Assembly: GCA_040219065.1 (NCBI GenBank)
Contig: JAVJTD010000261.1
Span: 657 to 64,656 of the forward strand
Reading direction: 5' to 3'
DNA length: 64,000 nucleotides
Source: Planctomycetota bacterium
GTDB lineage: Bacteria; Planctomycetota; OFTM77
This document shows, piece by piece, positions 40,809-64,000 of the stretch; positions within the stretch are counted from its first letter, which is position 1; each line of letters starts with the position of its first letter. The notes beneath the pieces were generated by a model, which did no database searches, was not told the DNA's origin, and saw nothing but the letters and a program-made list of their open reading frames with translations. The position numbers and the translations under genes were made by a program.

Positions 40809-40833
40809 AAGGGCGAGTCGGTGAGCTGAGACC

Positions 40834-46666: not shown

Positions 46667-46708
46667 TTGAACCGGCGTCCATGATGAGGTCCAATCGAGC
46701 GATTCACA

Positions 46709-49510
46709 ATGCTCGCGCCCGACACTGGATCGACCTCTCTCCCCCATGAGTGCGACGGGACCCATGGCACGACTCGACACCACGGCCGCTGCTCGGCTCG
46801 AGGACGCGACGTGAGCGATCGCTACCAGCGGCTGAAGCAACTCTTCCTCGAGCTTCGAGACCTGCCCGCTTCCGAGCGCGCGGTGTCGCTCGACCGTCTT
46901 CAAGACGCGGAGCTTCGAAGAGAGCTCGAGAGCCTCCTGACCGCCCATGACGAAGGCTCCCGGTTCCTCGACGCCGCGGCGAGCCAGATGGAGCAGCTCG
47001 GGCCGACCGAGCGACTCGGCGCCGGCAGCCGAATCGACGAGTACGAGATCCTGGATGTCCTGGGCGAAGGCGGCATGGGCATCGTGTACCGCGCGCGGCA
47101 GGCGCGGCCCGAGCGAATCGTCGCTCTCAAGGTCATCCGCCCCGGCTGGCTCAACAAGACGCTGCTGCGCCGCTTCGAAAACGAGGGCGAGCTGCTCGGC
47201 CGACTGCGTCATCCCGGCATCGCCCAGATCTATCAGGCCGGTGCTGCCAACTCGCCGCAGGGCCCACTCCCCTACCTCGCGATGGAGCTCGTCGAGGGCG
47301 AGGCGATCACCGACTTCGCAGAGCTGCGTCAGCTCGGCATCCGCGCGCGGCTCGGGCTAGTCGCGAAGGTCTGCGATGCCGCCCAGCACGCTCACGAGAA
47401 AGGCGTCGTCCATCGCGATCTCAAGCCGAGCAACATCCTCGTCGACGACTCGGGGCACCCGAAGATCCTCGACTTCGGCGTGGCGCGCGTCACCGAGCCG
47501 GAGCTGCGGACGGCGACGCTCGAGACGGCCACCGGACAGATCATCGGCACGCTTCCCTACATGAGCCCCGAGCAGGCGAGCGGCGACCCGGGCCGGGTCG
47601 ATCCACGCAGCGATGTCTACGCGATCGGCGTCATCCTGTACGAGCTCCTCGTCGGACGGCTCCCACAAGACCTCGGCGACAAGATCCTCGCCGAAGCTCT
47701 GCGCATGATCGCCGAAGACGACGTGACGCCGCCGAGCTCGATCGATCGCGTGCTCCGAGGTGATCTCGAGACGATCCTCCTGACGGCGCTCTCGAAGGAT
47801 CTCGCTCGGCGTTATTCCTCGGCCTCCGCGCTGGCCGCCGACATCCGGCGCTATCTCGCTGACGAGCCGATCCTCGCTCGCCCGGCGAGCACCTTTTATC
47901 AAATGCGCAAGTTTGCCAGGCGCCACGTCGGGCTGGTCGCAGGCCTCACGGCGGCCTTCGTGATCCTGCTGGCGGGCACGATCGTGGCCACCGCCCTGGC
48001 GATCGAGGCGGGACGGCGCGCCGAGGATGCTAGCCGGGAGAAGAAGCGCGCCGATCGCGAAGCCCATGATGCAAGGCTCGCCCGGGACGATGCGGTTCTT
48101 CAGGCGAAGATCTCTCGCGAGCAGCGCGAGATCGCGGTCGATCAGAGGAAACGTGCCGAGCGCGAAGCGATCGCGGCCACGGAAGTCTCCGATTGGCTGG
48201 TCCAGCTCTTCGAGATCAACGAGCCGAACCGCGCTCTCGGGGAGAGCATCACGGCGCGGGCGATCCTGGATCGCGCGGCCGAGACGGTCCAACAAGAGAT
48301 GCAAGAGCAGCCTTGGCTGAGCTCGCGTCTGGCGGTCGCGATCGGTCGCGCCTACTCTCAGCTCGCGCTGTTCGAAGAAGCCGAGCCGCTCATTCGCTGG
48401 GGCATCGCAAGGCAACGCGAGACCGAGCGCGTGGGTCCGCTCGAGCTCGCCACCAGCCTGCACGTTCTCGGCGATTTCTTGATGAAGCGCAATCGCAATG
48501 GGGAGGCGATCGATTGCTTCGAGGAGTCGTTGTCGATTCGAGAGCGCGAGCTTCCCGAGGACAGCTTCGACATCATGATCTCGCTCTTGGGACTGGGCAC
48601 GGCCGAGCGGCGCTCCGATCGCTTCGAGGATGCGCTCTCACACCTGAGCCGCGCCGAGACGATCGGGGTCGCGACGGTCTCCGAGAATGACGAGCACTTG
48701 GCGCAAGTGCTGGGCGAGCTCGGCAATGTCTACCAATCGACGGCCGAGTACGAGCAAGCTGCCGAGCTTCTCGAACGATCGCTCGACATCTGGTCCAAAT
48801 CCTTGCCGCCCGGCCATCCTCGCCTGGCGCAGGGGTACAACAACCTCGGCGTGCTGCAGAAGAGCCTCGGGCAGACCGAAGCCGCCGAGGCGAGCTTCCT
48901 CCGGACGCTCGAGATCCTCGAGACACTCTTCCCGGATGGCCACCCCAACATCGCCTTGATCACGCTCAACGTCGCGTTGCTCTGGGCAGACAGCGGCGAC
49001 CTCGAGCGCGCGGCCCCGTACGTCGAGCGAACCGACTTGCTCCTGAAAGAGCTGGGCATCGACGACTGGACGCTCACCGCCACGCTCTCGAACCTGCGCG
49101 CGCGAAGGGCCGCGGCGGCGGGCGATGGCGAAGCGGCGAGCCGTGCCTTCGGCGAAGCCGTTCGGCTCGCCGAGGCCGGCGGCGGTCCCGAGACCACCAA
49201 GCTCGCCACGCACCTGATGTACGCGGCGAACCACCACCGCTCGCAGGGAGGCCCCGAGAAGGCAATGGAGCTGACGCGTCGCGCGCTCACGATTCGAGAG
49301 AAGCTGCTGCCGCCCGATCATCCCGACATCGGTGAGTCACTCGCGATGCTTGGCCGAATCCTGGTCGGCCAGGAGCGCTTCGACGAAGCCGAGCCGGTGC
49401 TGAGGCGCGCGCTCGAAATCGAAGGGGAGCGCGCTCGCACTGATACACGAGAGGCCTGGGCGAAGGTGCAAGGGCAGAGCACCGAGCATTCGCCTTCGGG
49501 CGACAAGTAA
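46709..49510 (+). CDS. serine/threonine protein kinase with TM segment and long C-terminal TPR-repeat domain (start may be GTG ~46811)
   Basis: YEILDVLGEGGMGIVYRARQ...ALKVI (ATP site), HRDLKPSNILVD (catalytic loop), ILDFGVAR (DFG), TM LVAGLTAAFVILLAGTIVATALAI, many TPR-like repeats to the C-terminus. Confidence 0.88.
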   Translation: MLAPDTGSTSLPHECDGTHGTTRHHGRCSARGRDVSDRYQRLKQLFLELRDLPASERAVSLDRLQDAELRRELESLLTAHDEGSRFLDAAASQMEQLGPTERLGAGSRIDEYEILDVLGEGGMGIVYRARQARPERIVALKVIRPGWLNKTLLRRFENEGELLGRLRHPGIAQIYQAGAANSPQGPLPYLAMELVEGEAITDFAELRQLGIRARLGLVAKVCDAAQHAHEKGVVHRDLKPSNILVDDSGHPKILDFGVARVTEPELRTATLETATGQIIGTLPYMSPEQASGDPGRVDPRSDVYAIGVILYELLVGRLPQDLGDKILAEALRMIAEDDVTPPSSIDRVLRGDLETILLTALSKDLARRYSSASALAADIRRYLADEPILARPASTFYQMRKFARRHVGLVAGLTAAFVILLAGTIVATALAIEAGRRAEDASREKKRADREAHDARLARDDAVLQAKISREQREIAVDQRKRAEREAIAATEVSDWLVQLFEINEPNRALGESITARAILDRAAETVQQEMQEQPWLSSRLAVAIGRAYSQLALFEEAEPLIRWGIARQRETERVGPLELATSLHVLGDFLMKRNRNGEAIDCFEESLSIRERELPEDSFDIMISLLGLGTAERRSDRFEDALSHLSRAETIGVATVSENDEHLAQVLGELGNVYQSTAEYEQAAELLERSLDIWSKSLPPGHPRLAQGYNNLGVLQKSLGQTEAAEASFLRTLEILETLFPDGHPNIALITLNVALLWADSGDLERAAPYVERTDLLLKELGIDDWTLTATLSNLRARRAAAAGDGEAASRAFGEAVRLAEAGGGPETTKLATHLMYAANHHRSQGGPEKAMELTRRALTIREKLLPPDHPDIGESLAMLGRILVGQERFDEAEPVLRRALEIEGERARTDTREAWAKVQGQSTEHSPSGDK

Positions 49511-49531
49511 GCGCCCGGATCGCTTCCGCGA

Positions 49532-49798
49532 TCACCCGATCGCGACGCGGTGCAGGAGGTCGACGAGCTGACCGATGTTCTCGAGCTTGCCGAGCTCGGC
49601 GCGAGGCACCTTGACTCGCAGGTCGCGCATGCTGCACGAGACGATCTCGACAATGTCGAGGCTGGACGCACCGAGATCCTCGAGGGAGTCGGTCGGTTGG
49701 ACCTCGACGTCCTCGAGCTCGTCGATCGTGTCGATCAAGTGACCTCGGACGATGTCGAAGACCTGGCTGCGCGTGATCTCGTGAAGGCTCTGGCTCAT
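49532..49798 (-). CDS. acyl carrier protein
   Basis: 88 aa four-helix ACP with phosphopantetheine site LEDLGASSLDIVEIV (D-S-L). Confidence 0.85.
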   Translation of the reverse strand: MSQSLHEITRSQVFDIVRGHLIDTIDELEDVEVQPTDSLEDLGASSLDIVEIVSCSMRDLRVKVPRAELGKLENIGQLVDLLHRVAIG

Positions 49799-49936
49799 GA
49801 CTCGAGCTCCATCAGGGGAGTGACTTCAGATCGCCGATCGACCTGCTCGGGGAGTGAAACGGGAGGCGCCTCACGATCCGGCAATGGAGTCGTGAGTTTT
49901 CGTATCCCCCCACTTCAGGAGGTTGGCTCTCCGGCT

Positions 49937-50809
49937 TCAGCCGGATCGTTTCCCTTCGAAACGCGCGTTCCTCGTGGTCGCGGGCTCCACTCCGACGCTC
50001 TCGGTCTTCGCGAAGACCCGTTCCCGGTGCTGGAAGAGCCGGACGACGTTGTCGGAGAATTCGAGGCCGCGGTCGAGGGTGATGACTTGGCCGGTGATCG
50101 CGTCCATCTTGCCGCTGCAGAGGCCGACGATGGCGCTGGCGATCTCCTCGGCTTCCAGGAAGAACGCGTCGCTGTGGTACTGGCGACAGAAGGCGGCGAA
50201 GTCCTCGCCGAACGTCGCCTCGAGAGAGCGGGTCTCGCAGAACCAGGCGCGGAGGACGTTCACTCGGACGTCGTCTCCGAGAAGGTCGGCGGCGAGGTAG
50301 CGGCAGAAGGTCTCCATGACAGACTTGGAGGCGGCGACGACGTCGTAGCCTGGCAGGAAGTACTCGGGACCGGGTGACGAGAGCCCGATCGCGTAGCGTG
50401 GATAGGCACCGAAGTGCTCTTTGATCGCTTGCAGGTACGACGCGAACGGCCAGGCGCTGTACTCGAGCCCGCGGCGGAGGCCCTTGCGCGTCAGGTCGCT
50501 GGGCGTGTGACACACCGGCGCGAACGAGACGTTGCTGACGAAGACCTCGATGCGCTCGTGATAGCGTCGCACCGACTCGAAGAGCGCCCGCGTGTCCTCG
50601 TCTCGAGCGACATCGGCTTCGAGGATCGCGGGCGTTGGCGCCCCCTCCTCTTGAAAGCGCTCGGTAATCGCGTCCTCGTCGGCCGAGCCCCAGCGATGCG
50701 TCAGGATCGTGCTCGCACCGCGCCGCCCGAAGGCCAGCGCCGTCTCGAGACCGATGCCTTGCGTGCCGCCGGTGACCAGCACCGCCTTGCCCGTGAAGTC
50801 AACGCGCAT
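49937..50809 (-). CDS. enoyl-[ACP] reductase-like SDR (FabI/FabL-type Tyr-x6-Lys)
   Basis: AVLVTGGTQGIGLETA; active-site spacing Y-DVVAAS-K; paralogous to the next gene. Confidence 0.7.
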   Translation of the reverse strand: MRVDFTGKAVLVTGGTQGIGLETALAFGRRGASTILTHRWGSADEDAITERFQEEGAPTPAILEADVARDEDTRALFESVRRYHERIEVFVSNVSFAPVCHTPSDLTRKGLRRGLEYSAWPFASYLQAIKEHFGAYPRYAIGLSSPGPEYFLPGYDVVAASKSVMETFCRYLAADLLGDDVRVNVLRAWFCETRSLEATFGEDFAAFCRQYHSDAFFLEAEEIASAIVGLCSGKMDAITGQVITLDRGLEFSDNVVRLFQHRERVFAKTESVGVEPATTRNARFEGKRSG

Positions 50810-51602
50810 GGTCCACCTCCTCGAAGAGCCTCTGGCCGAGCGTCATCATGTTGTCGACGAAGCCCGAGCCGTGATCGACGGTGATCACCTGTCCGGACAA
50901 GGCGTCCCAGAGCCCGCTGCAGAGACTCGACGCGACATCGGCGACCTGCTCCGCCTCGACCGCGTACTCGGCGAAAGCCCGGGACACGGCCGCACCGTGC
51001 TCGCCGAACATCTCGCCGAAGCCGTCGGTCGTCACCTGCCGCGTCCGAATCACGTTCACGCGGCACCCGGCCTCCCTGAGATGAGTCGCCCAGTATTTCG
51101 CGAGCGTCTCGAGCACCGACTTGGCGAGCGCGACGTAGCCGTAGCCCGGGTAATGTCGATCGGCCCCGTCTGACGAGAGCGCCAGGGCATAACGCGGATA
51201 CCGGCCGAACACCGACGCGATCCCTTGCAGCGTGCCGATGAAGGGCCAAGCGCTGTAGTCGATGCTGCGCAGCAGGTCGCGGCGGCGATAGTCCATCGCG
51301 CCCTGCGAGCGCGGCACGACGCACACGTTGTGGACGAACACGTCGATCACTCCATACCGATCGCGAATGAGCTCGAGCAGCTCCCGTGTCTCGCCGTCGT
51401 CGCCGGCATCCGCCTGCACGATCATCAACATCTTTGCCCCGAGCTCTTCAAACCGTCCTCGGATCTCGTCCTCGTCGGCCGAGCTCCACCGATGCGTCAG
51501 GACCACCCGATCGCCCTCGCCCCCGAAGGCCTCGCCGATCGCCAGGCCCAGCCCTTTCGTCCCGCCGGTGACCAGCACGACGCGTCCAGGATTCTCACTC
51601 AT
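50799..51602 (-). CDS. enoyl-[ACP] reductase-like SDR (FabI/FabL-type), tandem paralogue
   Basis: VVLVTGGTKGLGLAIG; Y-GYVALA-K (Y-x6-K); colinear with the 49937..50809 protein. Confidence 0.7.
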   Translation of the reverse strand: MSENPGRVVLVTGGTKGLGLAIGEAFGGEGDRVVLTHRWSSADEDEIRGRFEELGAKMLMIVQADAGDDGETRELLELIRDRYGVIDVFVHNVCVVPRSQGAMDYRRRDLLRSIDYSAWPFIGTLQGIASVFGRYPRYALALSSDGADRHYPGYGYVALAKSVLETLAKYWATHLREAGCRVNVIRTRQVTTDGFGEMFGEHGAAVSRAFAEYAVEAEQVADVASSLCSGLWDALSGQVITVDHGSGFVDNMMTLGQRLFEEVDHAR

Positions 51603-52359
51603 GCCGATCCTCCATTCCGGGGAAGTAGCTGCCTTGAATCCTCTGCGCGGTCTCGGGCTTCTCGAAGCACACCGCGTGCATCAGCGCCTCGGACACGCGC
51701 GCGCGCTCGAACGCTACGCGACGCGGCGCCACGAGCGTCTGCTTCAATAGCCTGAGCGCGAAGCCCGGCTTCTCGGCGATGCGCCGCGCGATGCCGAGCG
51801 CGTGTGGCAACACGTCTTGTCCAGGCAACACCGCATTGACTCCACCTGACAGCTCGGAGCCGCGAACGAATCGCCCGCTCATCATCATCTCGGTGGCGAG
51901 GTACTCGCCGCACGCCACCTGCAGGAGACCGGTCGTGCCCATCCCCGGCGTGAACCCGAGATCCATGAAGTTGCAGCCGTAGCGTTTCTCCTTCGCCAGG
52001 ATCACCATGTCGCAGCACAGGCCGAAGACCAGCCCGCCACCGACGGCATGCCCGCTCATCGCGGCGATCGTCGGGACCGGGACATCCAACAACGTGCGGG
52101 TGAGCGTCAAGTCGTAGGGCGAGCGCCGACCTTCGGCGAGGTCGAGCAGGACTTCCTGGTCGCCGCCCGCCGAGAAGACATCGTCACTGCCCGTCACGAC
52201 ACAGCACTTCACCGCGGGATCGGAGAGCGCTTCCAGTCGCGCGACCAGCTCCGAGACGAAGCTCTCGCCGAAGGCGTTCTTCCCGGCTGGGTCTTGCATG
52301 CGTAGCAAGGCGACACCGTCACGATCGATCTCGAGCGTGATGCACGGCTCGCTCATCAC
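51595..52359 (-). CDS. enoyl-CoA hydratase/isomerase (crotonase) family, ECH2-like (decarboxylase of beta-branching cassettes)
   Basis: Crotonase fold motifs KCCVVTGSDDVFSAGGDQ and AAMSGHAVGGGLVFGLCCDMVI; position after ECH1/HMGS matches PksI/MupK-type. Confidence 0.75.
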   Translation of the reverse strand: MMSEPCITLEIDRDGVALLRMQDPAGKNAFGESFVSELVARLEALSDPAVKCCVVTGSDDVFSAGGDQEVLLDLAEGRRSPYDLTLTRTLLDVPVPTIAAMSGHAVGGGLVFGLCCDMVILAKEKRYGCNFMDLGFTPGMGTTGLLQVACGEYLATEMMMSGRFVRGSELSGGVNAVLPGQDVLPHALGIARRIAEKPGFALRLLKQTLVAPRRVAFERARVSEALMHAVCFEKPETAQRIQGSYFPGMEDRHE

Positions 52360-53126
52360 ACCGCCTCCGACTCGATGGTCCAGGGCGAGCGGCCTTCGAG
52401 GAACGCCGCGATGGACCGGCGCACGCTCGGATCCCGAAGTCGCTCCGCCGTCAACGATGCCCCCGCCGACAGTGCCTCTTCGAGTGACCGGGACGTCAGT
52501 CCGCTCAGGAGCCGAGCGATTCGGCGACTCGCTGCCGGGTCGACGCGGACGAGCTGCCGCTCCAAGCGCTTCAGCTCCCGCTCCAGCTCATCATGCGTCG
52601 TGACGACATCGACGAGCCCGATCTCCCGTGCGCGATGCGCCGAGCAAGGCAACGCCGAGGCCGCGAGCCAGCGCGCCTTCTGAGAGGCCATCCGCCCGAG
52701 GAGCATCGGCAGCACCATCGCCGGCACCAGCCCGAGGACCGCTTCGGGCAACGTGAAGGTCGCTCGCTCGGTCGCGATCACATGATCTGCCGCGGCCACG
52801 AGCCCCACACCCCCAGCAGCCACCTCGCCGTCGACGACCGCGATCACCACGGCCTTCAAATGATGCAGGCGAGCCAGCACCCTCGCGAACTGCTCCAGGC
52901 AAGGTTGGAGCTCGCCATCCGCCATCGAGAGGACTCGGCCGAGGTCCATGCCCCGGCAGAACGGATCGCTGCCGGACAACACCAGCACGCGGCAGTTCGC
53001 GTCCTTCTCCAGCTCGCCCAGAATTCGCTCCAGGCGATCGAGCGAATCGGGGTCGAGCGTCGCCTCACCGCCTAGCCGGATCTCGCGGACGTCTTCGGAG
53101 AGGAGCTCATGGTCGATCGTCATCAT
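52356..53126 (-). CDS. enoyl-CoA hydratase/isomerase family, ECH1-like (dehydratase of beta-branching cassettes)
   Basis: Crotonase motifs RVLVLSGSDPFCRGMDL and AVVDGEVAAGGVGLVAAADHVIA; 4-nt overlaps with both neighbours. Confidence 0.75.
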   Translation of the reverse strand: MMTIDHELLSEDVREIRLGGEATLDPDSLDRLERILGELEKDANCRVLVLSGSDPFCRGMDLGRVLSMADGELQPCLEQFARVLARLHHLKAVVIAVVDGEVAAGGVGLVAAADHVIATERATFTLPEAVLGLVPAMVLPMLLGRMASQKARWLAASALPCSAHRAREIGLVDVVTTHDELERELKRLERQLVRVDPAASRRIARLLSGLTSRSLEEALSAGASLTAERLRDPSVRRSIAAFLEGRSPWTIESEAV

Positions 53127-53138
53127 GGTCGGACTCCT

Positions 53139-54356
53139 TCAGCTCAATCCGTACTGACGCTCGAACCCCGAGACGCCCTCGAGAACGAGTCGGCCTCGCC
53201 CCGCATAAAGGCGCTCGTACAGGTCACCGTGCTCGCCCCGCGCCACGAGGTAGTCGGGCTGCTCGGCCCGCTCCGTCCTGGTGCGCTCGATGCGCTCATA
53301 CTCGGAGACGCTCACGGGCCGTCGCTCCTCGAGCAGCTCTTCCAGCCGGGCAGCGGCGACGATCTCCTTGGCTCTTGCTCCGATGCGCCCTTCGTAGATC
53401 TCGGCGCACGAGCCCGATCCGTACGAGAAGATGCTGACGCGGTCGCCCGGGGAGAGCTCGGGATCGCTATCGATCAAGCCGAGCAGCCCGAAGAAGGTCG
53501 AGCTCGAGTAGGTGCCACCGAGGAGCGCGTTGTAGGTGAGGCTCGGCCGCACCTTCCGCTCGAAGTGGGCCCGCGCCTCGGCCGCGTCCACTCGCCGTGC
53601 ACGCCGCAGCAGCGCTCGGTGAGCTCGCCAGGCCATGCCGCCGAAGGGCATGTGGTAGATGTGCCGCTGGAAATAGTCGTCGAGATCGTTGTCGCCGGCG
53701 CGCGTGAGGAAATGATCATAGGCGCCTTCGAGGCCGTCGAGGTAGCAGAACAGGCTGTCGTCGGCATGTCCTACCTCGCTCGTGGCGGTCGGGCGATAGG
53801 TATCGGCGACCTCGCTCGTCCAGTACCCGCAGTGCGAGAGCTCCAGCTCGAGGACATCGGGCCGATCCCCGACGATCATCGCGACGGCGCCCGCCCCCAT
53901 CACCATCTCCCAGGGCTTGCCGAAGTGGGCGCGGCTCTGGTCGGTGGTGACGACGAGCGCCTTCGCTCCGGGCCGAATGCCACTCGCCACCCAGTGCGCG
54001 GCGAGCATCAAGGCGGAGGTGCCGCTGTAACAAGCGTGCTTCGTCTCGAGCGTCCGGCAGTTGGGCTGGATGCCGCCGTAGCGGTGCACATACGCGGCGA
54101 TCGGCTTGCCGAAGTCCGGCGAGGACTCGGTGCCGACGACGAGGAGCTCGATGCGCTCCCGGTCCTCATCGGTGAGGACCGAGAGCGCGGCATTGACGGC
54201 CATCGTCACCGGATCTTCGAAGAGCGGATTGAGTGACCGCGTCTTCACCATGAGCTCGTCGAGCGATGCCGGGTCCTGGCCACGGGCAATCGCGAGCTCT
54301 GCGAGGTCCAAGGAGAGCGTGCACGGGTAGGCCGAGATCTTCTGGATTCCGATCAT
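53139..54356 (-). CDS. hydroxymethylglutaryl-CoA synthase homologue (HMGS; PksG/MupH-like)
   Basis: 405 aa from MIGIQKISAYP (RBS GGAG upstream); catalytic Cys in RTLETKHACYSGTSAL, His in HIYHMPFGG, C-terminal SYGSGS; the listed 710-aa ORF is this gene plus an out-of-frame overlap of the KR gene. Confidence 0.85.
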   Translation of the reverse strand: MIGIQKISAYPCTLSLDLAELAIARGQDPASLDELMVKTRSLNPLFEDPVTMAVNAALSVLTDEDRERIELLVVGTESSPDFGKPIAAYVHRYGGIQPNCRTLETKHACYSGTSALMLAAHWVASGIRPGAKALVVTTDQSRAHFGKPWEMVMGAGAVAMIVGDRPDVLELELSHCGYWTSEVADTYRPTATSEVGHADDSLFCYLDGLEGAYDHFLTRAGDNDLDDYFQRHIYHMPFGGMAWRAHRALLRRARRVDAAEARAHFERKVRPSLTYNALLGGTYSSSTFFGLLGLIDSDPELSPGDRVSIFSYGSGSCAEIYEGRIGARAKEIVAAARLEELLEERRPVSVSEYERIERTRTERAEQPDYLVARGEHGDLYERLYAGRGRLVLEGVSGFERQYGLS

Positions 54357-54379
54357 CTTCCGGCTCCGATCGAACGAGC

Positions 54380-55168
54380 TCACTTCGTCCAGTCCAGTCC
54401 GCCGGTGACGGGGATCACCTGCCCATTGATGAAGCTGGCGGCATCGCTCGCGAGGAAGAGGACGACGCGCGCCAGCTCTTCGGCTTCGCCCATGCGTCCA
54501 CCCGGCATGGGGCAGAGGTCTCGCCAGTAGTCCCGCATGCGCTCCGGCATCGTCTCGCGCGTCATGTCGGTCTCGAAGAAGCCCGGCCGCACGACGTTGG
54601 CGCGGATTCCCTTCGGTCCGTACTCCTTCGCGAGGCTTCGCGTGAGCCCTTCGAGCCCGGCCTTGCTCGCCGCGTAGTTGGCCTGACCCGAGCCGCCGCC
54701 GGCTTGGATCGAGGAGACGTTGATGATGCGGCCACAGCGGCCCGCGAGCATCGAGGGCAAGAAGTGCCGGCAGACGCGGAAGGGGCCCGAGAGGTTCGTC
54801 GCGATCACCGTGTCCCATTCCTGGTCCGACATCGAGATCGCGAGGTTGTCGCGGTTCACGCCCGCGCAGTTCACGACGACCTCCACCGGCTCGAAGTCGA
54901 GCTGCACCGCCTCGAGCGCCGGCTCGATCGCCTGGGCATCGGAGACATTCAACTCGTAGGCGCGGCAGTGAGCTTCTGGACGCATCGCTCGGGCGGCCTC
55001 GATCACGCCACCGGCAGCAGCGCGATTCGATTTGAAGGTAAAGGCAACATCGTGACCGGCTCGGATCGCCTCCAGCACGATCGCCGCGCCCAGCCCGCGC
55101 GAGCCTCCTGTGACCAGCCAGTTCACCTCGCGTCTCCTTCTTCGAAGCGCCGATACAGCGCGCAGCAA
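54380..55168 (-). CDS. fabG: 3-oxoacyl-[ACP] reductase (FabG-like KR); probable true start at a GTG near 55126 preceded by AAGGAGA
   Basis: WLVTGGSRGLGAAI, NAG motif VVNCAGVN, catalytic S..YAASKAGLEG (YxxxK). Confidence 0.88.
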   Translation of the reverse strand: MLRAVSALRRRRREVNWLVTGGSRGLGAAIVLEAIRAGHDVAFTFKSNRAAAGGVIEAARAMRPEAHCRAYELNVSDAQAIEPALEAVQLDFEPVEVVVNCAGVNRDNLAISMSDQEWDTVIATNLSGPFRVCRHFLPSMLAGRCGRIINVSSIQAGGGSGQANYAASKAGLEGLTRSLAKEYGPKGIRANVVRPGFFETDMTRETMPERMRDYWRDLCPMPGGRMGEAEELARVVLFLASDAASFINGQVIPVTGGLDWTK

Positions 55169-56427
55169 TTGATCCCGCCGAAGCCGAAGGAGTTCTTGAG
55201 CAGGACGTCGGCGCGGTGCTCGACGGGTCCTTCGGCGCAGACATCGAGCGCGACCTCGTCATCGAGCTCATCGATGTTGATCGAGGGATGCAGGACGCCG
55301 CCTTGCATCTGCAGCAGCGCGGCCACCGTCTCGACGACGGGCGCCGACCAGCAGGTGTGACCGAGCATCGACTTCGGCGCGTTGACCTTCAGCCGATCGG
55401 CATGACTACCGAACGCCGCGCGCAGCGCTCGCATCTCGGACAGGTCGCCCTGCGGCGTCGAGGTCGCGTGCGCACACACGAAGTCGACATCCTCGGGGCG
55501 CGTACCCGTGCGTTGCAGCAGCCGCTCGATCGTCCGAGTCTGCCCTTCGGGAGACGGCGCGGGCAGGTGACAGCCGTCGGCGGTCGCTGTACATCCGAGC
55601 ACCTCGGCGTAGATGCGTGCGCCCCGCCCGAGCGCATGCCCCAGCTCCTCGAGCACCAGCACGCCCGCTCCGTGCGATGGCACGAAGCCCTCTCGCCGCT
55701 TGTCCCACGGCCGGCTGGCCGCTTCGGGACAATCGTTGAAGCTCTCGATGCTGATCGCGCCCATCAACGCCATCGCCTGCACATCGAGCGCTGAGAACTC
55801 GAGCACCGGACCGACGACCATGACGAGGTCTTGGTCATGATGACGAATCTCGTCGAGGCCGGTGCGCAAGGCGAGGTTGGCGCTCGCGCAGGCACCACCG
55901 AGCGTGAATGCCGATCCCTTCCAGCCGAGCACCTCGCTGACGGAGCCGGCGTGATCGGTGTCGAGCATCAGCAGCGCCGCGGCCGCGTCGATGTAATCGG
56001 GCTCGCCGCGAAACGTCTCGTAGTTGCCGATGAGGTAGTTCTGGTTCAGGTTGTGCCCGCCGACGAGCACGCTGCTCCGGGTCGGGTCTTCCTGGCCGGT
56101 CAGTCCGGCGTCCCTCCAGCCCTCGGCGGCGACGAGCATCGAGATCTCGGTCGAGAACGGAGCCTTCTTACTGAGCTGACGGAGCCGACGATGCATCGCG
56201 TCGGGCAGCCGCTCCCGCAGCGCCTCACGCCGCGCCACGCCATCGACGTGACCGGCGAGGTCGCCGCCGATCTTCGAGTAAACACCCTCCGTCTCCAGGC
56301 TGCGCCACTGCCGGATCGCCGAGCGCCCGGCGAGGAGGTTCGCGTAGAAGGTCTCGAGGTCACCGCCGAGCGGCGTCTGTATCGCCATCCCCGTTACGAC
56401 CACTCGCCGTTGATTCGCCGCGATCAT
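55123..56427 (-). CDS. beta-ketoacyl-[ACP] synthase (FabF/FabB-like KS, Cys-His-His triad intact)
   Basis: Starts MIAANQRRVVVTGMAIQTPLG within ORF 55123..56508; active-site Cys LGGACASAN, His CAHATSTPQGD, His KSMLGHTCWSA. Confidence 0.88.
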   Translation of the reverse strand: MIAANQRRVVVTGMAIQTPLGGDLETFYANLLAGRSAIRQWRSLETEGVYSKIGGDLAGHVDGVARREALRERLPDAMHRRLRQLSKKAPFSTEISMLVAAEGWRDAGLTGQEDPTRSSVLVGGHNLNQNYLIGNYETFRGEPDYIDAAAALLMLDTDHAGSVSEVLGWKGSAFTLGGACASANLALRTGLDEIRHHDQDLVMVVGPVLEFSALDVQAMALMGAISIESFNDCPEAASRPWDKRREGFVPSHGAGVLVLEELGHALGRGARIYAEVLGCTATADGCHLPAPSPEGQTRTIERLLQRTGTRPEDVDFVCAHATSTPQGDLSEMRALRAAFGSHADRLKVNAPKSMLGHTCWSAPVVETVAALLQMQGGVLHPSINIDELDDEVALDVCAEGPVEHRADVLLKNSFGFGGINCCALYRRFEEGDAR

Positions 56428-56509
56428 GACGTGCTCCTTCGTGAGGCTCCGAGCGACTCGACAGTCGCTGTCGCCGAGGGAAACGAAGGAGGCATGCCGA
56501 TCCGGCAAT

Positions 56510-57335
56510 CAAGTCAGCAAGATCGTTGCGGCGAACCGGCGGAGCATACAGTGCTGAAACTGGGCCCGAGGGCAATGGAGTGCCCAAGCCGAGCGAGCCC
56601 GTGACCGAGTCTCTTGGTGAGGGCTTTCCCAAGCGAGCTTGGTCCGGGGCGGCCGTGCGACGACAGCGCACTCCGAGCGGCCCCTTGCTCCGCGCCTCCC
56701 AATTCGATCGGTGGCACCGTCGAGGAAGCAGCTCCCCGCTCAGCAGCCGCTCCCCGGTTCGGTCGCGCGGGCTCTGTTTTCGGTCGCGCGGGATCTAGTT
56801 TCAAGTCAGCAGCGCCCCCGCGGTGGACCGCCGGAGCATACAGGGGGTGAAGCTCGAGTGCGTTGGAGTGCCCAAGCCGAGCGAGCCCGTGACCGGGTCT
56901 GTCGGTGAGGGCGCTGCGCAAGCGAGCTTGGGCCTCTTCGAACGTCCAACGGCTCGACTTCCAACTCTCAACTTTGAAGCTGGCGATCCGATCGCACGCG
57001 GCGGCATCGGGCCACGGAGCTTCGGACCTGAGGTTTGGGGCTTCTTCAAGGCGCTGGGATGAGGGCACCGAGACCGGCTGAAGCCGGCGGTCCGAATGCG
57101 GCATGTTTCAAGTCAGCAGCGCCCCCAGCGCGGCGCCGGAGCATGCAGGTGGTGAAACGTGCTCGGTGCATTGGAGTGCCCAAGTCGAGCGAGCCGGGGA
57201 CCGGGTCTCTTGGTGAGGGCCTTCCCAAGCGAGCTTGGGCCGGGGCCGACCGCTGCAACCCCAAGCCTGTGAGGCTTGCCCTCGTCTGGGTCGTGCCGCT
57301 GCGCGGACCGATGCGGGCAGGATCCCGCGCTCCTC
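56510..57335. repeat. mosaic repeat locus 3: ~2.7 tandem copies of a ~300-bp unit inserted between the fabZ-like and KS genes of the biosynthetic operon
   Basis: Unit starts ccggagcat(a/g)cag..gtgaa..ggagtgcccaagccgagcgagcc..gaccg.gtct.t.ggtgagggc..cccaagcgagcttgggcc, recurring at ~56535, ~56834 and ~57141; also contains ggccacggagcttcggacctgaggtttgggg and gagaccggctgaagccggcggtccgaatgcgg, shared with loci 1 and 2. Confidence 0.85.
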
Positions 57336-57851
57336 TCAGTCGTCCAGCCAAACCACCTGACAAGCTGCGGCGGTGCAGATCTTGCCGTCGACGATTGCCT
57401 GGCCGATGCAGGTACCGATCCAGCCGTCGTCTTCGGTCATCTTCACGACCAACCGGACATCGTCGCCGGGCCGGACCTCTTCGAGGAACTGGGCGCCTTC
57501 GATCCTGGCGAGCCGAAGAGAGCGCGGTGCGTCGCCGGGCAGGAGCTCGGTCCGCTCCGCGCGGATGAAGTGAGCGAGGGCGAGTCCGGCCTGACCGATC
57601 ATCTCGAGGAGGAGCACGCCCGGGTAGACGGGATCGGACGGGAAGTGCCCGTCGAAGACCGGGTCCGCCACATCGATGTGCCGCCGTGCCTCGAGCGCCC
57701 GCTACGCGAGGTCGATCTGCGCCACGCCGTCGAGCAACAAGAAGGGCGCACGGTGCGGGAGGATCTGCTCCAGCCCCATGCGATCGATGTCGACCGCGGT
57801 GCCTCGTTCCTCCATGAGCGTGCTTCGGGTCGGCAGTCTCACGCGCTTCAT
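57336..57851 (-). pseudogene. FabZ/FabA-like hotdog dehydratase interrupted by an in-frame TAG (~codon 50)
   Basis: Listed ORF 57336..57671 begins mid-domain at (V)ADPVFDGHFPSDPVYPGVLLLE, the FabZ catalytic-His motif region. The 177 nt upstream reads in the same frame MKRVRLPTRSTLMEERGTAVDIDRMGLEQILPHRAPFLLLDGVAQIDLA-TAG-RALEARRHIDV, i.e. the FabZ N-terminus (ILPHRxPFLLxD). Its ATG overlaps (ATGA) the stop of the upstream AT gene. Confidence 0.7.
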
Positions 57852-58798
57852 GACGCCACCGAACGCGGCGAGGTCGCCGCTCTCAGGCGTGGAATCAACT
57901 CACGGAGATGCTGCGCCGTTTCGTCTTTGCTGTCGCAGGCGTGCTTGTCGACGCGGCACCACTTGCGATCCATCAGGCTAGTCAGCACCGACTTCGCCCC
58001 GACCTCGACGAACACCGCATCCGGCCAGCGCTCGCGAACGTGATCGATCGACGCTCGCCACTGAACGGGCGAATGCACGTGCTCGGTCAGTAGCCGCTGC
58101 ATCTGCTCGGGGGACGGGCAGAGACACTCGCGTCCCAGCACGTTGGAGAAGTACGGTCGATGCGGCCGCTGCCAGCGCACGCGATGCAGGTGCTCCGCCA
58201 ACTCGTCGGCGACCGGGCGGAACATCGAGCTGTGCATAGGGCACCGCTTCTCGATGACGACTGGCTGCGCAAAGTGCTCGTCCTCGGCGCTGCGGACAGC
58301 ATCAGCGACGGCTTCGGCATGGCCTGCGATGACCTGCTGGCGCGGCGAGTTGAGGTTCGCGATCTCGAGGCAGCGGTCTCCGCGGACGCGCTCGATCAGC
58401 GCTTGCACCTCGCCCTCTTCCATTGGCTGAACGGCGGCCATCCAGCCGCGTGGTCCGCGATCGTACGCACGCCCGCGAGCCTGCACCGTCAGGAGCGCCT
58501 CACGAAAGCTCAGAGCGCCGATGTGCACGAGATGGTTGAGCTCGCCGAGGCTCGCGCCGAGGGAGAGATCCGCTCGTACACCGCGAGCTTCGAGGAGGCT
58601 CTGGAACATCAGGTTGGCGAGGAACACCGCGATCTGGATGTCCTCGTTGCGCTCGAATCGTCGCTCATCGAGCTCGCGGCCGAGCAGCCGCTGCGCCTCG
58701 GCGAGAACACCCAGGTTCGGGGCGTGCAGCTCGGTCAGCTTGGTCAGCATCCCGGGATACCGCGAGCTCTGACCGGGGAAGAGGTAGACGAGAGTCAT
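57848..58798 (-). CDS. malonyl-CoA:ACP transacylase-like acyltransferase (FabD family)
   Basis: FPGQSSRYPGM, active-site GASLGE (GxSxG), ...HS... motif; 316 aa. Confidence 0.82.
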   Translation of the reverse strand: MTLVYLFPGQSSRYPGMLTKLTELHAPNLGVLAEAQRLLGRELDERRFERNEDIQIAVFLANLMFQSLLEARGVRADLSLGASLGELNHLVHIGALSFREALLTVQARGRAYDRGPRGWMAAVQPMEEGEVQALIERVRGDRCLEIANLNSPRQQVIAGHAEAVADAVRSAEDEHFAQPVVIEKRCPMHSSMFRPVADELAEHLHRVRWQRPHRPYFSNVLGRECLCPSPEQMQRLLTEHVHSPVQWRASIDHVRERWPDAVFVEVGAKSVLTSLMDRKWCRVDKHACDSKDETAQHLRELIPRLRAATSPRSVAS

Positions 58799-58813
58799 GG
58801 CGACCTCCCCGGG

Positions 58814-60043
58814 TCAAAGAAGGGTATCGGTGAGGATATCGAGCGCGCAGTCGAGCTCGTCCGGAGTGTGGGCCGCGGTGATGGCGACGCGGTAGCGCAG
58901 CGCGTCCTCGGGCACGGACGGGTAGTCGATCGGGGCGAGGAACAGGCCGCGGCGGGTCATCTCGGCGCATCGCTCGTAGAGGCGATCGCGGTCGGAGCCC
59001 ATCATGATCGGGATCACCGGGCTCTCCGATTCGCCGCAGTCCAAGCCTGCCTCCTGCGCGCGCGCCCGGAAGTAATGAGTATTCCTCCATAACGTCTCTC
59101 GCCTGGAACCGTCGCGCGTGGCGATGTCGAGCGCGGCCATCACACCGGCCACGACCGAAGGCGGCAAGGCGCAGGAGAAGCCGTAGGGCCTCGAGTACAG
59201 CCGGAGGTACTGCAGCGTCTCGCGGTCCCCGGCCGTGAATCCGCCGATGCCTGCCAGCGCCTTGCTGAACGTCCCGAACTGGAGAGCGATCCGCCCCTGC
59301 ATTCCAAAATGCTCGACGACGCCCCCGCCGGTCTCGCCGAACATCAGGTACGAGTGCGCCTCGTCGATGAAGATCGGGACGTCGTGCGCCTCGGCCACCG
59401 GGACCAATGATGGGAGATCGGCGAGGTCGCCGTCCATCGAGTACACGCCTTCGAGCACGACGAGACGACGGCGTCCGGCAGCCGCATCGAGGGCACGCTC
59501 GAGCGAGACGGGATCGTTGTGGTCGAAGAAGACGAGCTTGGCGCCCGAGACTCGCGCGCCATCGATCAGGCAGAGGTGGCAGCGCGCATCGAGGATCGCC
59601 ACATCCCCCTTGCGAAGCAAGCCGGCGAGGCTGCCCATGCCGCCCGCGTAGCCGCTGTTGAAGAGCAGGCAGGACTCGCGGCCGAGGTGCTCGGCCAAGC
59701 GCTCCTCGAGGAGGGCGTGGAGGTCGGATGTGCCGGAGAGGATCGGCGAGCCGCAAGCGCCAGTGCCGTACTCCTGGAGCGCAAGGGCAGCGGCTCGGAG
59801 CACGTCGGGGTGGCGGTTGAGCCCGAGGTAGTTGTACGAGGCGAGGTTGATCACCGATCGACGCGCTCCGGCGCGCTCGATGTCGACCCGCGGAAGAGCG
59901 GCTCCGTGGAGCCGAGGCTCCATCAAGGAGAGGGGCTCCTGGCACCGCGCGAGCCAGGCCGTGAACTCGGGAGGCGCTTGGGCCGGATCGGAGGTGTCGG
60001 GGAACGCGAAATCGGCCAGGCTGTACTCGATGGACGTGCTCAT
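58814..60043 (-). CDS. PLP-dependent alpha-oxoamine synthase family enzyme (SPT/CqsA/BioF/KBL-like acyl-thioester:amino-acid C-acyltransferase)
   Basis: Starts MSTSIEY within ORF 58814..60115; SYNYLGL, GTGACGSPILSGT, PLP-lysine motif GTFSKALAGIGGF. Confidence 0.85.
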   Translation of the reverse strand: MSTSIEYSLADFAFPDTSDPAQAPPEFTAWLARCQEPLSLMEPRLHGAALPRVDIERAGARRSVINLASYNYLGLNRHPDVLRAAALALQEYGTGACGSPILSGTSDLHALLEERLAEHLGRESCLLFNSGYAGGMGSLAGLLRKGDVAILDARCHLCLIDGARVSGAKLVFFDHNDPVSLERALDAAAGRRRLVVLEGVYSMDGDLADLPSLVPVAEAHDVPIFIDEAHSYLMFGETGGGVVEHFGMQGRIALQFGTFSKALAGIGGFTAGDRETLQYLRLYSRPYGFSCALPPSVVAGVMAALDIATRDGSRRETLWRNTHYFRARAQEAGLDCGESESPVIPIMMGSDRDRLYERCAEMTRRGLFLAPIDYPSVPEDALRYRVAITAAHTPDELDCALDILTDTLL

Positions 60044-60146
60044 GAGTGAGTCCTCGTTCTCGTGATCGATTCGGTCGTCACCGAGCGAAACGAGAACGAA
60101 GATCGGATCCGGCAAGAAGGAGCGCCGGATTCGTGGCGCGTCAGCA

Positions 60147-61400
60147 TCAGCCGGACTGGCTTGATGCGCCGTGTCTTTGTGTTGATCCCTGCGAGCGGGA
60201 CGGCCGCGCTCCAGATCGCACAGCGGATGGCTCGCCCGTCAGGTGGAAGGTCTCTCGCCGATTCCGGCAGGGGTTGCCGCGGCAGACGTCGATCGTGCGA
60301 GTCGTGGGATCCAAGATCGCGTTGAACAGAGTCTCGCTGAGGGGGTCATCGTGGCGGCAGACCGTCAGGCTGTTGCCTGAGCTACCGTCGTGATCGCTGG
60401 AGATATTGACGATGTCCCTGTCTCCATACTTGTCTCGGGTCAACAGCCTCGGAAGCCGCGCGCTCCTCGAGACATTGCAGGCGTGGATGTCGACGCCGCT
60501 GATGACGCCGCGACTGAGCGAGCCGACGGGGACTTCGACCGCCGGCATCTCCTTCGAGAAGTACTGGTTGACCGACCAGAGGACCTCATTGCGCTCCGGT
60601 CGTCGGACAGATTTGCGTGTGGCGGAGATCTCGATCGCGGCGCGATCGCCCGATGCATCGACGAAGGTGAGGATGCCGCCACTCAGCGTCTCGGTGCGCA
60701 ACACGGTGTCGACCGCCTCTTGGGTGGATCGAGCACGCTCGAGGCACTCTTGGAGCAACATCGTCAGGAATCGACCCGGCTTCCGGCGGCGGATGTCGGC
60801 AGCGAAGGCATGGTTGAGCGAGACGGCGAGCCCGGCTTCATTGACGCCGGCGACGGCACCGAGGAGGACGGGGTACGTCAAGGCGAGCGAGCGAAGGCCA
60901 TGCGTGGGATCCGACCGCCGGATCATCGCGAACGGGCGGAAGGCGGGCGGAAAGTCGTGGTTGTAGGCCAGCTTCGGGCGCCCGGACTCGGTCTGGGACC
61001 CAGCGAAGCCGAGGGAGCTGCACCCTGGCGTGAAGCCGAAGTGGGAGCTCTCGAGCTCGATGGCATTGAGTCCGTAGACCTGGCTCTTGCTGAGACCCAA
61101 TCCCGCCGCGAGGCCATCCAGGGCCTCGCGCCAGAACGGATCGAGCGCGTCTCGGTGCCAATGCCGATAGCAGCGGCCGAGCACGCTCGAGATCCCTCGA
61201 AGGACCAGTCGGCCCAATCCGCGTGGCAGCCTTTCGGGCACGAAGGGAAGCTGTAGCAGGGCGTCGAGCGCCGCCCCCAGCTCGCCGCGACCCGACCGCC
61301 CTTGAGCTCCATACCGCTCGCTGGGGCTCCCTTCTGCCAGGACGACGCTCCAACCCGGCGCTCGTTGCAGTGACTTCATTTCAACATACCTTCCTTTCAA
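60147..61400 (-). CDS. peptidase C45 / acyl-CoA:6-aminopenicillanic-acid acyltransferase (AAT)-family Ntn-hydrolase-fold protein
   Basis: 417 aa; GCSSLGF nucleophile-region motif and AYNHDFP segment typical of the AAT/C45 family; low-complexity R/S/G-rich C-terminal ~90 aa. Confidence 0.6.
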   Translation of the reverse strand: MKGRYVEMKSLQRAPGWSVVLAEGSPSERYGAQGRSGRGELGAALDALLQLPFVPERLPRGLGRLVLRGISSVLGRCYRHWHRDALDPFWREALDGLAAGLGLSKSQVYGLNAIELESSHFGFTPGCSSLGFAGSQTESGRPKLAYNHDFPPAFRPFAMIRRSDPTHGLRSLALTYPVLLGAVAGVNEAGLAVSLNHAFAADIRRRKPGRFLTMLLQECLERARSTQEAVDTVLRTETLSGGILTFVDASGDRAAIEISATRKSVRRPERNEVLWSVNQYFSKEMPAVEVPVGSLSRGVISGVDIHACNVSRSARLPRLLTRDKYGDRDIVNISSDHDGSSGNSLTVCRHDDPLSETLFNAILDPTTRTIDVCRGNPCRNRRETFHLTGEPSAVRSGARPSRSQGSTQRHGASSQSG

Positions 61401-63508
61401 CCGATGGTGCGATACGTCTCCGGCCGTCCGGCGATGACGTTGGCCGCGCGGATTCCCGACTCACAGGCCCCTTCGACCAGTGCGATGCAGAAGCGCGTCC
61501 GCGTGTGGTCCCCCGCCAGGATCAGCCCCCAGCGCTCGTAGAGATCACCCGCGCCCAGCCGGGTCGCGGTCGATCCCGCCGGCACACGGTTGTAGCGGTC
61601 CGAGCTGCTGGGCAGGTCGGGAAGGTACTGATCGCGAATCCGGTCGCGACCGGAGGCGCCCTTCTCCGCGTGCACGACCTCGTCCCACAGGAACCGACCC
61701 TCTCGGTACGCCTTCGGCCAAAAGTGGGCCATGTGATCCTCGAGATACCCGGCGAGGTGGCTTTGCTCGTCGAGGCGCTCGTCGTCGAAGAAGCTCGCCG
61801 GGATGTCGGCTCGCTCGCCCCAGAAGTACGCCACGCTCGACGGTGCGTCGTCGCCATGATCCTCGGCTGCGAGCGTCTGACTCATGTCGGTGTAGCCGGC
61901 GATCGGATCGAGATACGTTCCGCAGAGGATCGGGCCCGGCTCGCGCCCGAGGCCAGGCTGATCGTGCGCGCTCCAGCCGAGCTCCTGCGCCGAGCGCTTC
62001 AGCCAGACCTGTCCGCCCGCCGGCTCGACGGCGTTCTGGGCTCCCCGGCGAACGAAGGCATCGTAGGCTGCGTCCTTCGCCATGAGCTCGGAGGCGATCT
62101 CGGCGTGGGCACCGATGGCGATGGCGTTGAGGATCACGTCGAAGTCGCGGCCGCGCTGGATCGTCGCGTCGGTCTGGCCCGGGATGTCTCGAAAGCTCTC
62201 CAGCCCGGCCTCGGGAGGGAGCTGCCGCAGATCCTGCCCGTCGACGCGCGTGACGATCTGATCCCAAAGCGGCTCACTCGGCCAACAGTCGATCGGCCTT
62301 TCGAGTCGACCTTGCACGGGAATCAAAGGGTCGTATCCGCGGTCCTCATCCGCCAACCTGCACTGACGCACCATCTCGACGGCTTCGATCCCTTCACCGT
62401 TCTCAGCCAAGCGCAGGTTCGTCACTCGGTGGAAGAACCGGAACCGGACACCGCGATCCCTGAGCATTTGATAAACAGGCGCGACGACGACATCGCCCAT
62501 GCCGGCGTTCATCAGGTACTGCGGGCAGCCGGTCCAGGTGAACATCAACCGGCTGACGGTGTAGAGCGCCGCCCCGGCTGCCAAGGTCGAGGTGTTGTGG
62601 GCGATCGTCTTGTAGAGGTTCTTCAAGAGCGGAGAGCGCTCGGCCGACACCTCGGTCAGGCCGTAGCGGCGGAGCCAGTCGATGAAGTCCTCGCCGTCCA
62701 ATTCGCGGTAGCCGGCGGCATCCGGCTTTCGCAGTCGCCAGAAGCTCGCGATGCGGCCCCGCAGGAGCGCACACATCAGGTCGATGTTGTAGAAGGCCCG
62801 ACGCAGGCGGGGTGAGCTCTTCGGTGTCCTCACTCGGTGATGATAGAGCGCATTGAGCTTCGCGATGACGACGAGCACCGGTGCGACGACGAGGAGGCAG
62901 AAGACGAAGGTCGCCCCAGCCGAGCACGAGCTGATGAGAGCGCCCGGCAGGAGAGCTCGTCCGTGCGCCGACACCCGGCGGCGGAGCCGGGGTCGGTCTC
63001 GGGTCCCCGGGCGCGGTCCGCGCAGCTTCCCCCAGAAGGCGCGCACGAAGGACGCCGCGAAGAAGTCCGCGCGAGCTCGCCGCTCTTCTCCGGGGTAGAG
63101 CGCGTTCGTCCAGAAGCGGTTCGGCCAGTGCACCCATTCGGGATCGTGACCGGGGAAGTGCTCTTGGAGCTGCCAGCTCGGCATCTGGCGAATCGCGCTC
63201 TTCAAGCCGCCCAGCGGTGCGCCCGACCCCAGCCCGCGCTCGCCGACGTATTCGTAGGCATCCCAGAGTAGCCGAAAAGTCATCCCGTAGAAGCCGAGCA
63301 GAATGTGGAGTCCGTGCTCTTCGATGCGCTGCCCGCGGGCGGCATTGCGACCCGAGCGGGCCTTGCCACCCAGCCTCCAGCCGAGCTGATACACGGTGAT
63401 ATCGTAGCGGTCCTGCCAACCCGGCTCGCGCGTCAGCTCGTGCACCGCCGACAACGCCGCGACGCCACCGCCGAGCACCGCGATCCTCTTGGGTCTTTCT
63501 CGAGTCAT
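61397..63508 (-). CDS. large FAD/NAD(P)-binding oxidoreductase (amine-oxidase / CrtI-like desaturase superfamily) with a central hydrophobic segment
   Basis: Starts MTRERPKRIAVLGGGVAALSAVHEL (dinucleotide-binding fold) within ORF 61397..63991; ~703 aa; TM-like LLVVAPVLVVIAKL; ATGA overlap with the downstream C45 gene. Confidence 0.7.
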   Translation of the reverse strand: MTRERPKRIAVLGGGVAALSAVHELTREPGWQDRYDITVYQLGWRLGGKARSGRNAARGQRIEEHGLHILLGFYGMTFRLLWDAYEYVGERGLGSGAPLGGLKSAIRQMPSWQLQEHFPGHDPEWVHWPNRFWTNALYPGEERRARADFFAASFVRAFWGKLRGPRPGTRDRPRLRRRVSAHGRALLPGALISSCSAGATFVFCLLVVAPVLVVIAKLNALYHHRVRTPKSSPRLRRAFYNIDLMCALLRGRIASFWRLRKPDAAGYRELDGEDFIDWLRRYGLTEVSAERSPLLKNLYKTIAHNTSTLAAGAALYTVSRLMFTWTGCPQYLMNAGMGDVVVAPVYQMLRDRGVRFRFFHRVTNLRLAENGEGIEAVEMVRQCRLADEDRGYDPLIPVQGRLERPIDCWPSEPLWDQIVTRVDGQDLRQLPPEAGLESFRDIPGQTDATIQRGRDFDVILNAIAIGAHAEIASELMAKDAAYDAFVRRGAQNAVEPAGGQVWLKRSAQELGWSAHDQPGLGREPGPILCGTYLDPIAGYTDMSQTLAAEDHGDDAPSSVAYFWGERADIPASFFDDERLDEQSHLAGYLEDHMAHFWPKAYREGRFLWDEVVHAEKGASGRDRIRDQYLPDLPSSSDRYNRVPAGSTATRLGAGDLYERWGLILAGDHTRTRFCIALVEGACESGIRAANVIAGRPETYRTIG

Positions 63509-63533
63509 CGCCGCCTCCAAGCAAGGGGTTCCA

Positions 63534-63553
63534 GCCGTGCGCTCGAGCGCACG
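63534..63553. promoter_or_regulatory. perfect 20-bp palindrome ccgtgcgctcgagcgcacgg in the divergent promoter region of the biosynthetic cluster
   Basis: Located ~30 nt upstream of the FAD-oxidoreductase start; followed at ~63680 by a direct repeat TCACGAA-TCACGAA. Confidence 0.35.
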
Positions 63554-63778
63554 GGTCGAAGGCGAAAACGGAAGTCGGTGCCGGATCCGGCAATGAGCCG
63601 ATCGAGTTACGAAGGACGAGATCTTGATGACGAGGCGTGGAGAGCCGGCGTCGGGTGATTGCGGGGTGAGCCGCGATTCACGAATCACGAAGATTGCCGG
63701 ATCGCGAGCTCCCTGCCGTTTCAACCTCCGACTCTTTGAGCTGTCGCTTTCCGAACCGGCCGACCGCAGGAGCCAACG

Positions 63779-64000
63779 ATGACCAGGATCGATACGACTG
63801 CGAGCCCACGGATGCTCGATGTCCCGACCCAGCTCCGCTACTCCGAGGACTACGCTCTGGAGAACAGGCGCTTGGTGCGTCTCTACGAACACGCCAAGCG
63901 CGATCAATGGAATGCGACACAGCGTCTCGACTGGTCGATCGAGGTCGATCCCGGGCGCGGCGTCTTTTCCGACGAGCTCATCGGCATCCACGGCAGCGCG
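63779..64000 (+). CDS. 5' fragment of a CDS running off the window; weak resemblance to ferritin-like di-iron oxygenases (AurF-like)
   Basis: ATG at ~63779 preceded by GGAG; reads MTRIDTTASPRMLDVPTQLRYSEDYALENRRLVRLYEHAKRDQWNATQRLDWSIEVDP..., open to the window end; high GC3. Confidence 0.35.
   Translation, partial: MTRIDTTASPRMLDVPTQLRYSEDYALENRRLVRLYEHAKRDQWNATQRLDWSIEVDPGRGVFSDELIGIHGSA

Follow-up and report, generated by a model that had tools for sequence, protein, structure and literature searches.

A one-base nonsense variant or consensus error interrupts a FabZ-family dehydratase gene in a planctomycete metagenome-assembled genome

FabZ-type 3-hydroxyacyl-ACP dehydratases, several of which have been solved (PDB 3d6x, 5buy, 1u1z, 6n3p), have a hotdog fold, LPHRxPF and GHFP motifs and a Glu on the central helix, and their usual gene neighbourhood is lpxD-fabZ-lpxA. 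ApeI-like and other FabZ-family dehydratases are found in specialised type II fatty-acid synthase or polyketide synthase-like clusters. A third point of comparison is the ordinary nonsense polymorphism, or micro-heterogeneity, of metagenome-assembled genomes (MAGs), in which one transition creates a premature stop and two assemblers retain different alleles. The gene described here resembles each of these in part. It lies in a 64,000-nt stretch of DNA (hereafter the window) that encodes the proteins deposited for a 69,963-nt contig of the GenBank MAG 'Planctomycetota bacterium', and its reading frame is broken by an in-frame TAG. We read the break as either a nonsense variant of a single base or an error of the MAG consensus, an ordinary matter that points neither to recoding nor to an established pseudogene.

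The dehydratase frame runs along the minus strand from 57851 to 57336 and comprises 172 codons (171 plus the stop). Its ATG overlaps the TGA of the preceding acyltransferase gene as ATGA (57851..57848), and around codon 50 the frame reads ILPHRAPFLLLDGVAQIDLA, then the stop, then RALEARRHIDVADPVFDGHFPSDPVYPGVLLLE. An earlier note, made from the sequence alone, had described a FabZ-like gene coupled through ATGA to the acyltransferase gene and interrupted by a TAG near 57703, at about codon 50; it had cited an open reading frame list in which only the C-terminal 111 codons are open from an internal GTG, and had allowed that its own reading of the nucleotides might be wrong. Translation and Pfam bear out the gene and its coupling, the TAG is found at 57704..57702, the 111-codon frame extends from 57671 to 57336, and on checking the nucleotides read as the note had quoted them. 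The coordinates of these and the other features are collected in Table 1.

Table 1. Features of the window and results of its comparison with the Logan assembly of run SRR26147846.
Feature	Position in window	Strand	Basis or result
Conserved 11-gene cluster	49532..60115	-	Pfam, NCBIfam, Logan gene calls, shared order
Malonyl-CoA:ACP acyltransferase gene, 316 aa	57848..58798	-	TGA overlaps dehydratase ATG
Interrupted FabZ-family (FabA-like, ApeI-like) 3-hydroxyacyl-ACP dehydratase gene	57336..57851	-	Translation, Pfam, PDB matches, AlphaFold2, Foldseek
In-frame TAG, codon 50	57702..57704	-	Translation; compared with CAG in Logan contig
N-terminal 49-codon fragment	57702..57851	-	Open reading frame list
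111-codon open frame, internal GTG at 57671	57336..57671	-	Open reading frame list; same frame as the 49-codon frame
Non-coding spacer, dehydratase to ketosynthase, ~905 nt	56431..57335		Three dispersed-repeat copies
Second difference site, in 267-aa SDR gene (50799-51602)	51427..51430	-	GACGCC to GATGTT, three C to T in 4 nt
kup potassium transporter gene, frameshifted	1-1989	-	K_trans profile positions 2-231 in one frame, 229-453 in another
Window compared with Logan	1-15677		100% identical
Window compared with Logan	19844-35383		100% identical
Window compared with Logan	29828-45688		Three mismatches, all within last ~30 nt of Logan contig
Window compared with Logan	46052-55582		Differs at 51427, 51428, 51430 and in last few nt of contig
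Window compared with Logan	57216-59700		Single difference, 57704

The two open pieces divide the elements of the enzyme between them. The 49-codon fragment has the invariant LPHRxPF motif and the strands at residues 18-23 and 42-47, while the third N-terminal strand (52-58) lies past the stop; the 111-codon frame has the catalytic His69 (GHFP), Glu83 and the central helix, and lacks residues 1-60. GenBank lists the 49-aa fragment as a hypothetical protein (MEQ8765391.1, RL885_15765), and none of the sources looked up has a protein record for the 111-codon fragment. The PF07977 (FabA-like) profile nevertheless matches the interrupted frame as a single stretch that spans the stop (residues 31-161, 72.2 bits against a cut-off of 23) and takes in profile positions 1-136 of 138. 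Solved FabZ proteins retrieved by a PDB sequence search likewise align to residues 22-167. Because one domain match and the FabZ alignment both run across the stop, the two halves are one gene, and the interruption is real rather than a chance reading.

Homologues were sought in a collection of 5.8 billion proteins, with the stop in the query replaced by X. The nearest relatives among the matches listed are intact proteins of 160-195 aa that share at most 49% identity with the query, come mostly from Myxococcota MAGs and isolates, and carry PF07977 together with the ApeI-like PF22818 in precomputed annotation. A scan of one genome per species gave a best match, among those listed, of 48% identity, and supplied the loci used below to compare gene order and codon 50. 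We considered these relatives as a source of the ancestral codon and set them aside, since even the nearest one listed, at 49% identity, is too distant; the codon came instead from exact-sequence look-ups. The residues invariant in an alignment of 25 sequences are H33, R34 and P36, which fall upstream of the stop, and G68-H69-F70-P71 and E83; H69 of the GHFP motif and E83 on the central helix fall downstream of it.

An AlphaFold2 model built on the homologue alignment (pLDDT 92, pTM 0.89) has a central helix (residues 78-98) wrapped by a beta sheet, and Foldseek superposes it on FabZ crystal structures with TM-scores of 0.85-0.92; the protein is thus predicted to adopt the hotdog fold. Residue 50 is modelled at the surface, in the turn that joins strand 42-47 to strand 52-58, and its column is variable in homologues. 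Identity to the FabZ structures named above is 27-35% over ~150 aligned columns, and the protein shares with them both motifs (LPHRxPF, GHFP) and the central-helix Glu. However, the protein scores below both NCBIfam FabZ equivalog cut-offs (NF000582, 101.8 against 113; TIGR01750, 96.2 against 155). It also differs from FabZ in its interruption at codon 50, in an N-terminal extension of ~20-25 residues, which the model folds into a further strand and helix (18-30), and in its place within a specialised cluster beside an acyltransferase gene. Judged by sequence, it is a FabZ-family paralogue and not the housekeeping enzyme.

The cluster contains, in order, genes for a BioF/Kbl/Spt-like oxoamine synthase, an acyltransferase (AT), the dehydratase (DH), a ketosynthase (KS), a FabG-like ketoreductase (KR), an HMG-CoA-synthase-like protein (HCS), two enoyl-CoA hydratase-family (ECH) proteins, two SDR proteins (FabL/FabI-like) and an ACP. 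For most of these proteins the NCBIfam score stays under the equivalog cut-off. An equivalent set, with largely conserved gene order, is present in most of the 80 orthologous loci listed (L001-L075 among them), which represent at least eight phyla, including Myxococcota, Spirochaetota, Bacteroidota, Acidobacteriota, Nitrospinota, Bdellovibrionota and Actinomycetota. The nearest relatives of the dehydratase, which carry PF22818 and PF07977, stand in the same AT-DH-KS-KR-HCS-ECH-ECH-SDR-SDR-ACP arrangement as in the window. With its HMG-CoA-synthase beta-branching genes and its oxoamine synthase, the cluster here is not of the aryl-polyene type. Neither this cluster type nor its product was found described in the literature; we take it for a widespread and apparently uncharacterised pathway that may condense a beta-branched acyl chain with an amino acid. 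Directly upstream on the minus strand (60147-63991) are two genes that overlap end to start, one of 417 codons resembling C45-family autoproteolytic acyltransferases/hydrolases and one of 864 codons resembling FAD/NAD-binding amine oxidases and HpnE. Neither occurs in any of the 80 orthologous loci listed, and they may be lineage-specific tailoring genes.

The spacer between the dehydratase and ketosynthase genes is unusually long, the same spacer having a median length of 5 nt in 52 co-linear orthologous loci. It is filled by three tandem-like repeat units with a period of ~290-308 nt and the core GGAGTGCCCAAGCCGAGCGAGCCCGTGACCG, for which 0 chance matches are expected, and a fourth copy with its flanks lies at 45653-45683. 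Through this insertion the operon may be transcribed as two separate units. We also considered the repeat as a structured RNA and rejected it, as its copies gave unlike folding z-scores, between -2.2 and +0.35, and had no Rfam match. Short-read contigs break at the repeat copies.

A second assembly was available for comparison, namely the Logan assembly of Illumina run SRR26147846. An exact-sequence look-up of the acyltransferase returned one other coding place, the 2,486-nt Logan contig SRR26147846_81113 (L081), which ends inside the spacer. L081 is identical to the window at all but one of 2,485 aligned nt (57216-59700). The sole difference is at plus-strand position 57704, where G in L081 is replaced by A in the window (C and T, respectively, on the minus strand). 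In L081 the dehydratase is accordingly an intact gene call of 171 aa with CAG (Gln) as codon 50, so that the window gene is one base away from an intact allele and keeps all conserved residues. The earlier note had proposed looking for a sense codon at this place in orthologous clusters. That comparison gave CAG in the second assembly, and Gln is also the commonest residue among orthologues (Gln 22, Glu 17, Arg 10 and Ala 9 in the codon-50 column of the 80 loci listed). The 171-aa Gln version was found only in Logan, and none of the window proteins was found in Logan samples beyond SRR26147846.

Run SRR26147846 is a NovaSeq PE150 metagenome of a non-axenic culture of Coleofasciculus sp. WW12 (DSM 104231), for which trimmed reads were deposited, and the MAGs from that culture were assembled with MEGAHIT 1.2.7 (PMC11785472, which mentions extractions from both 2019 and 2023). 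One bin, G1-WW12-33 (probably SAMN36815403), has a size of 9.1 Mb in 582 contigs, a G+C of 0.65 that fits the window, 17.4x coverage and 4.65% contamination, and is the only WW12 bin classified no further than Planctomycetota (Table S2D, PMC11785472). From the organism name, the G+C and the single matching sample, we infer that the window belongs to this bin. The window and the Logan contigs are then very probably two assemblies of one read set. Positions 1-22 of another Logan locus, L082, are an Illumina adapter remnant (CAGACGTGTGCTCTTCCGATCT), a sign of short-read origin and of incomplete adapter trimming in the Logan assembly.

The Logan loci L081-L085, on four contigs, cover window positions 1-15677, 19844-45688, 46052-55582 and 57216-59700, or ~58 kb. 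Four internal differences occur across this length. Read along the coding (minus) strand, each has C in the Logan sequence against T in the window, and no synonymous change is among them. Besides codon 50, they lie in an enoyl-reductase-like (FabL/FabI-like) SDR gene of the same cluster, where three changes give T58M and P59L. Pro59 is invariant in the orthologues (26 of 26). This invariance and the orthologue comparison indicate that the Logan alleles are ancestral at both sites, and that the window alleles are derived and radical. The triple change in the SDR gene arose either in a single clustered mutational event or as an artefact of damage. Additional differences at 45662-45684 and 46052-46061 were not accepted as variants but put down to graph ambiguity, since they are confined to the terminal ~30 nt of Logan contigs that end in or close to dispersed-repeat copies. 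Nor is a protein of 565 aa in one source and 564 aa in the other (GenBank and Logan) a sequence difference, as the DNA is identical and only the start-codon call differs. The acyltransferase is identical between the GenBank MAG and the Logan assembly.

A second disrupted gene in the window, kup, had been taken in the earlier note as a hint of poor sequence quality. The frameshift lies near 953-958, with no homopolymer at the site. However, the Logan assembly is 100% identical over this region and also has a truncated gene call there (371 aa), so that the shift is a reproducible property of the reads and does not speak for poor quality; kup is probably a real pseudogene. Genes for TrkH/TrkA and a Kdp sensor lie near it.

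We lean towards a real nonsense allele, seen as the T of the MAG consensus and carried by some of the planctomycete cells in the laboratory cyanobacterial co-culture. The gene would be an ordinary, recently functional FabZ-family dehydratase of a conserved type II fatty-acid/polyketide-like cluster, in which one C to T transition turned Gln50 (CAG) into the amber codon of the deposited consensus. Two alleles would be present in the culture, of which MEGAHIT would have kept the T allele and Logan's assembler the wild type. Both assemblers drop k-mers that occur a single time and, at a bubble, retain the branch with the higher coverage. Their disagreement therefore suggests intermediate allele frequencies, and both alleles would be present at appreciable frequency in the reads. 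Translation in T-allele cells would end after 49 residues. A restart at the GTG at 57671, 11 codons downstream, would yield residues 61-171, without three of the seven beta strands and without LPHRxPF. We considered whether such a restart could supply a working enzyme and judged against it, since the model places strands 18-23, 42-47 and 52-58, together with H33, R34 and P36, outside the product. The truncated product would presumably be inactive, leaving T-allele cells null for the dedicated dehydratase of the cluster. The P59L and T58M changes in the SDR gene of the same consensus would fit a haplotype that lost function while selection was relaxed in a laboratory consortium, provided that the two changes are linked.

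That only four differences occur in ~58 kb, at two sites that both lie within the dehydratase cluster, counts in favour of a real allele. Against it, three substitutions in 4 nt would be odd for independent spontaneous mutations and could stem from a damaged template or a library artefact, and the two sites, whose linkage is presumed, are 6 kb apart. The T allele of either site is carried by none of the retained Logan contigs. These last points lead to the principal alternative, which we regard as possible though doubtful: the organism has only CAG, and the T arose in the consensus from a deaminated or otherwise damaged template, from library preparation or from a path choice by MEGAHIT. The Logan assembly of SRR26147846, with its CAG and ancestral Thr-Pro, is as expected under an artefact, as is the lack of T alleles among its contigs. 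The four C to T differences on one strand, three of them in 4 nt, resemble deamination of a single molecule, and the coverage of the likely source bin is modest (17.4x). However, under the k-mer and bubble rules given above an occasional damaged read would be expected to lose out at 17x, and the remainder of the 58 kb is free of such errors. Moreover, both events fall in one cluster that makes up ~8.5 of the 58 kb compared, for which a rough estimate puts the chance at roughly 0.02.

It is unlikely that the two assemblies represent two older co-existing strains that had diverged naturally, with the TAG strain carrying an established pseudogene in a decaying cluster. The bin contamination of 4.65% and its 582 contigs are compatible with strain heterogeneity, and decay would be consistent with two radical changes in one cluster and with the 905-nt repeat insertion that splits the operon. 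However, just two mutational events in ~58 kb, with zero synonymous differences, point to very recent divergence, and the repeat insertion is common to both assemblies as far as L081 reaches. Somewhat less probable again is strand-specific cytosine deamination, either transcription-associated or by a deaminase toxin, which would have produced a non-producer sub-population of a cyanobacterium-associated planctomycete during long-term co-culture. This reading is prompted by four private changes that are all radical, all C to T on the coding (non-transcribed) strand and limited to two sites of one cluster; no particular deaminase motif is evident, as the altered cytosines follow G, A, G and C. 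A nonsense allele segregating in the culture, our preferred reading, would closely resemble ordinary nonsense polymorphism in MAGs, from which it differs in the second change within the same cluster and in the C to T strand bias at both sites.

Programmed recoding, in which a suppressor tRNA, pyrrolysine or the codon context would let the TAG be read through to a full-length dehydratase, finds some encouragement in a frame that goes on perfectly past the stop and in the intact remainder of the cluster. The TAG is also followed by C, a base often tied to leakier termination in this position. However, the CAG allele stands in otherwise identical sequence, and the dehydratase is uninterrupted in all 80 orthologous loci listed, from many phyla, none of which has a stop at codon 50; an uninterrupted coding sequence is thus absent from the window and present in L081 and every listed orthologue. 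TAG serves as the ordinary terminator of at least three other window genes at normal lengths, namely murA (420 aa) and two other well-supported genes. The 64-kb window contains no tRNA gene and no Rfam family, and the 96 nt between 57710, which is 6 nt before the TAG, and 57615, a candidate stimulatory element, are no more stable when folded than shuffled versions (-40.2 kcal/mol; mean of the shuffles -40.7; z = 0.15). With residue 50 also lying in a variable surface turn, recoding is highly improbable.

The earlier note had left three options for the interruption, a pseudogene, programmed readthrough or a base-call error. Readthrough is unsupported given CAG in the second assembly and the uninterrupted orthologues, and a fixed pseudogene is unsupported because an intact allele was assembled from SRR26147846; what stands of the proposal as possible is a nonsense allele carried by some of the cells or an error in the consensus.

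The split of this gene in GenBank, which lists the 49-aa piece as a hypothetical protein and omits the C-terminal piece, matters mainly as annotation hygiene. Cluster mining of the MAG would wrongly score the dehydratase as missing, or might take the TAG for recoding. The case also shows that questions of this kind can be settled, even when the reads are out of reach, by an independent assembly of one public run. A real T allele would be a modest instance of micro-diversity through loss of function that arose in a non-axenic culture kept for a long time; if the deamination reading were true, a consortium would offer a natural case in which a secondary-metabolite cluster was lost. Of greater biological interest are the surroundings of the gene, an apparently uncharacterised cluster shared by many phyla and a lineage-specific repeat insertion that splits its operon.
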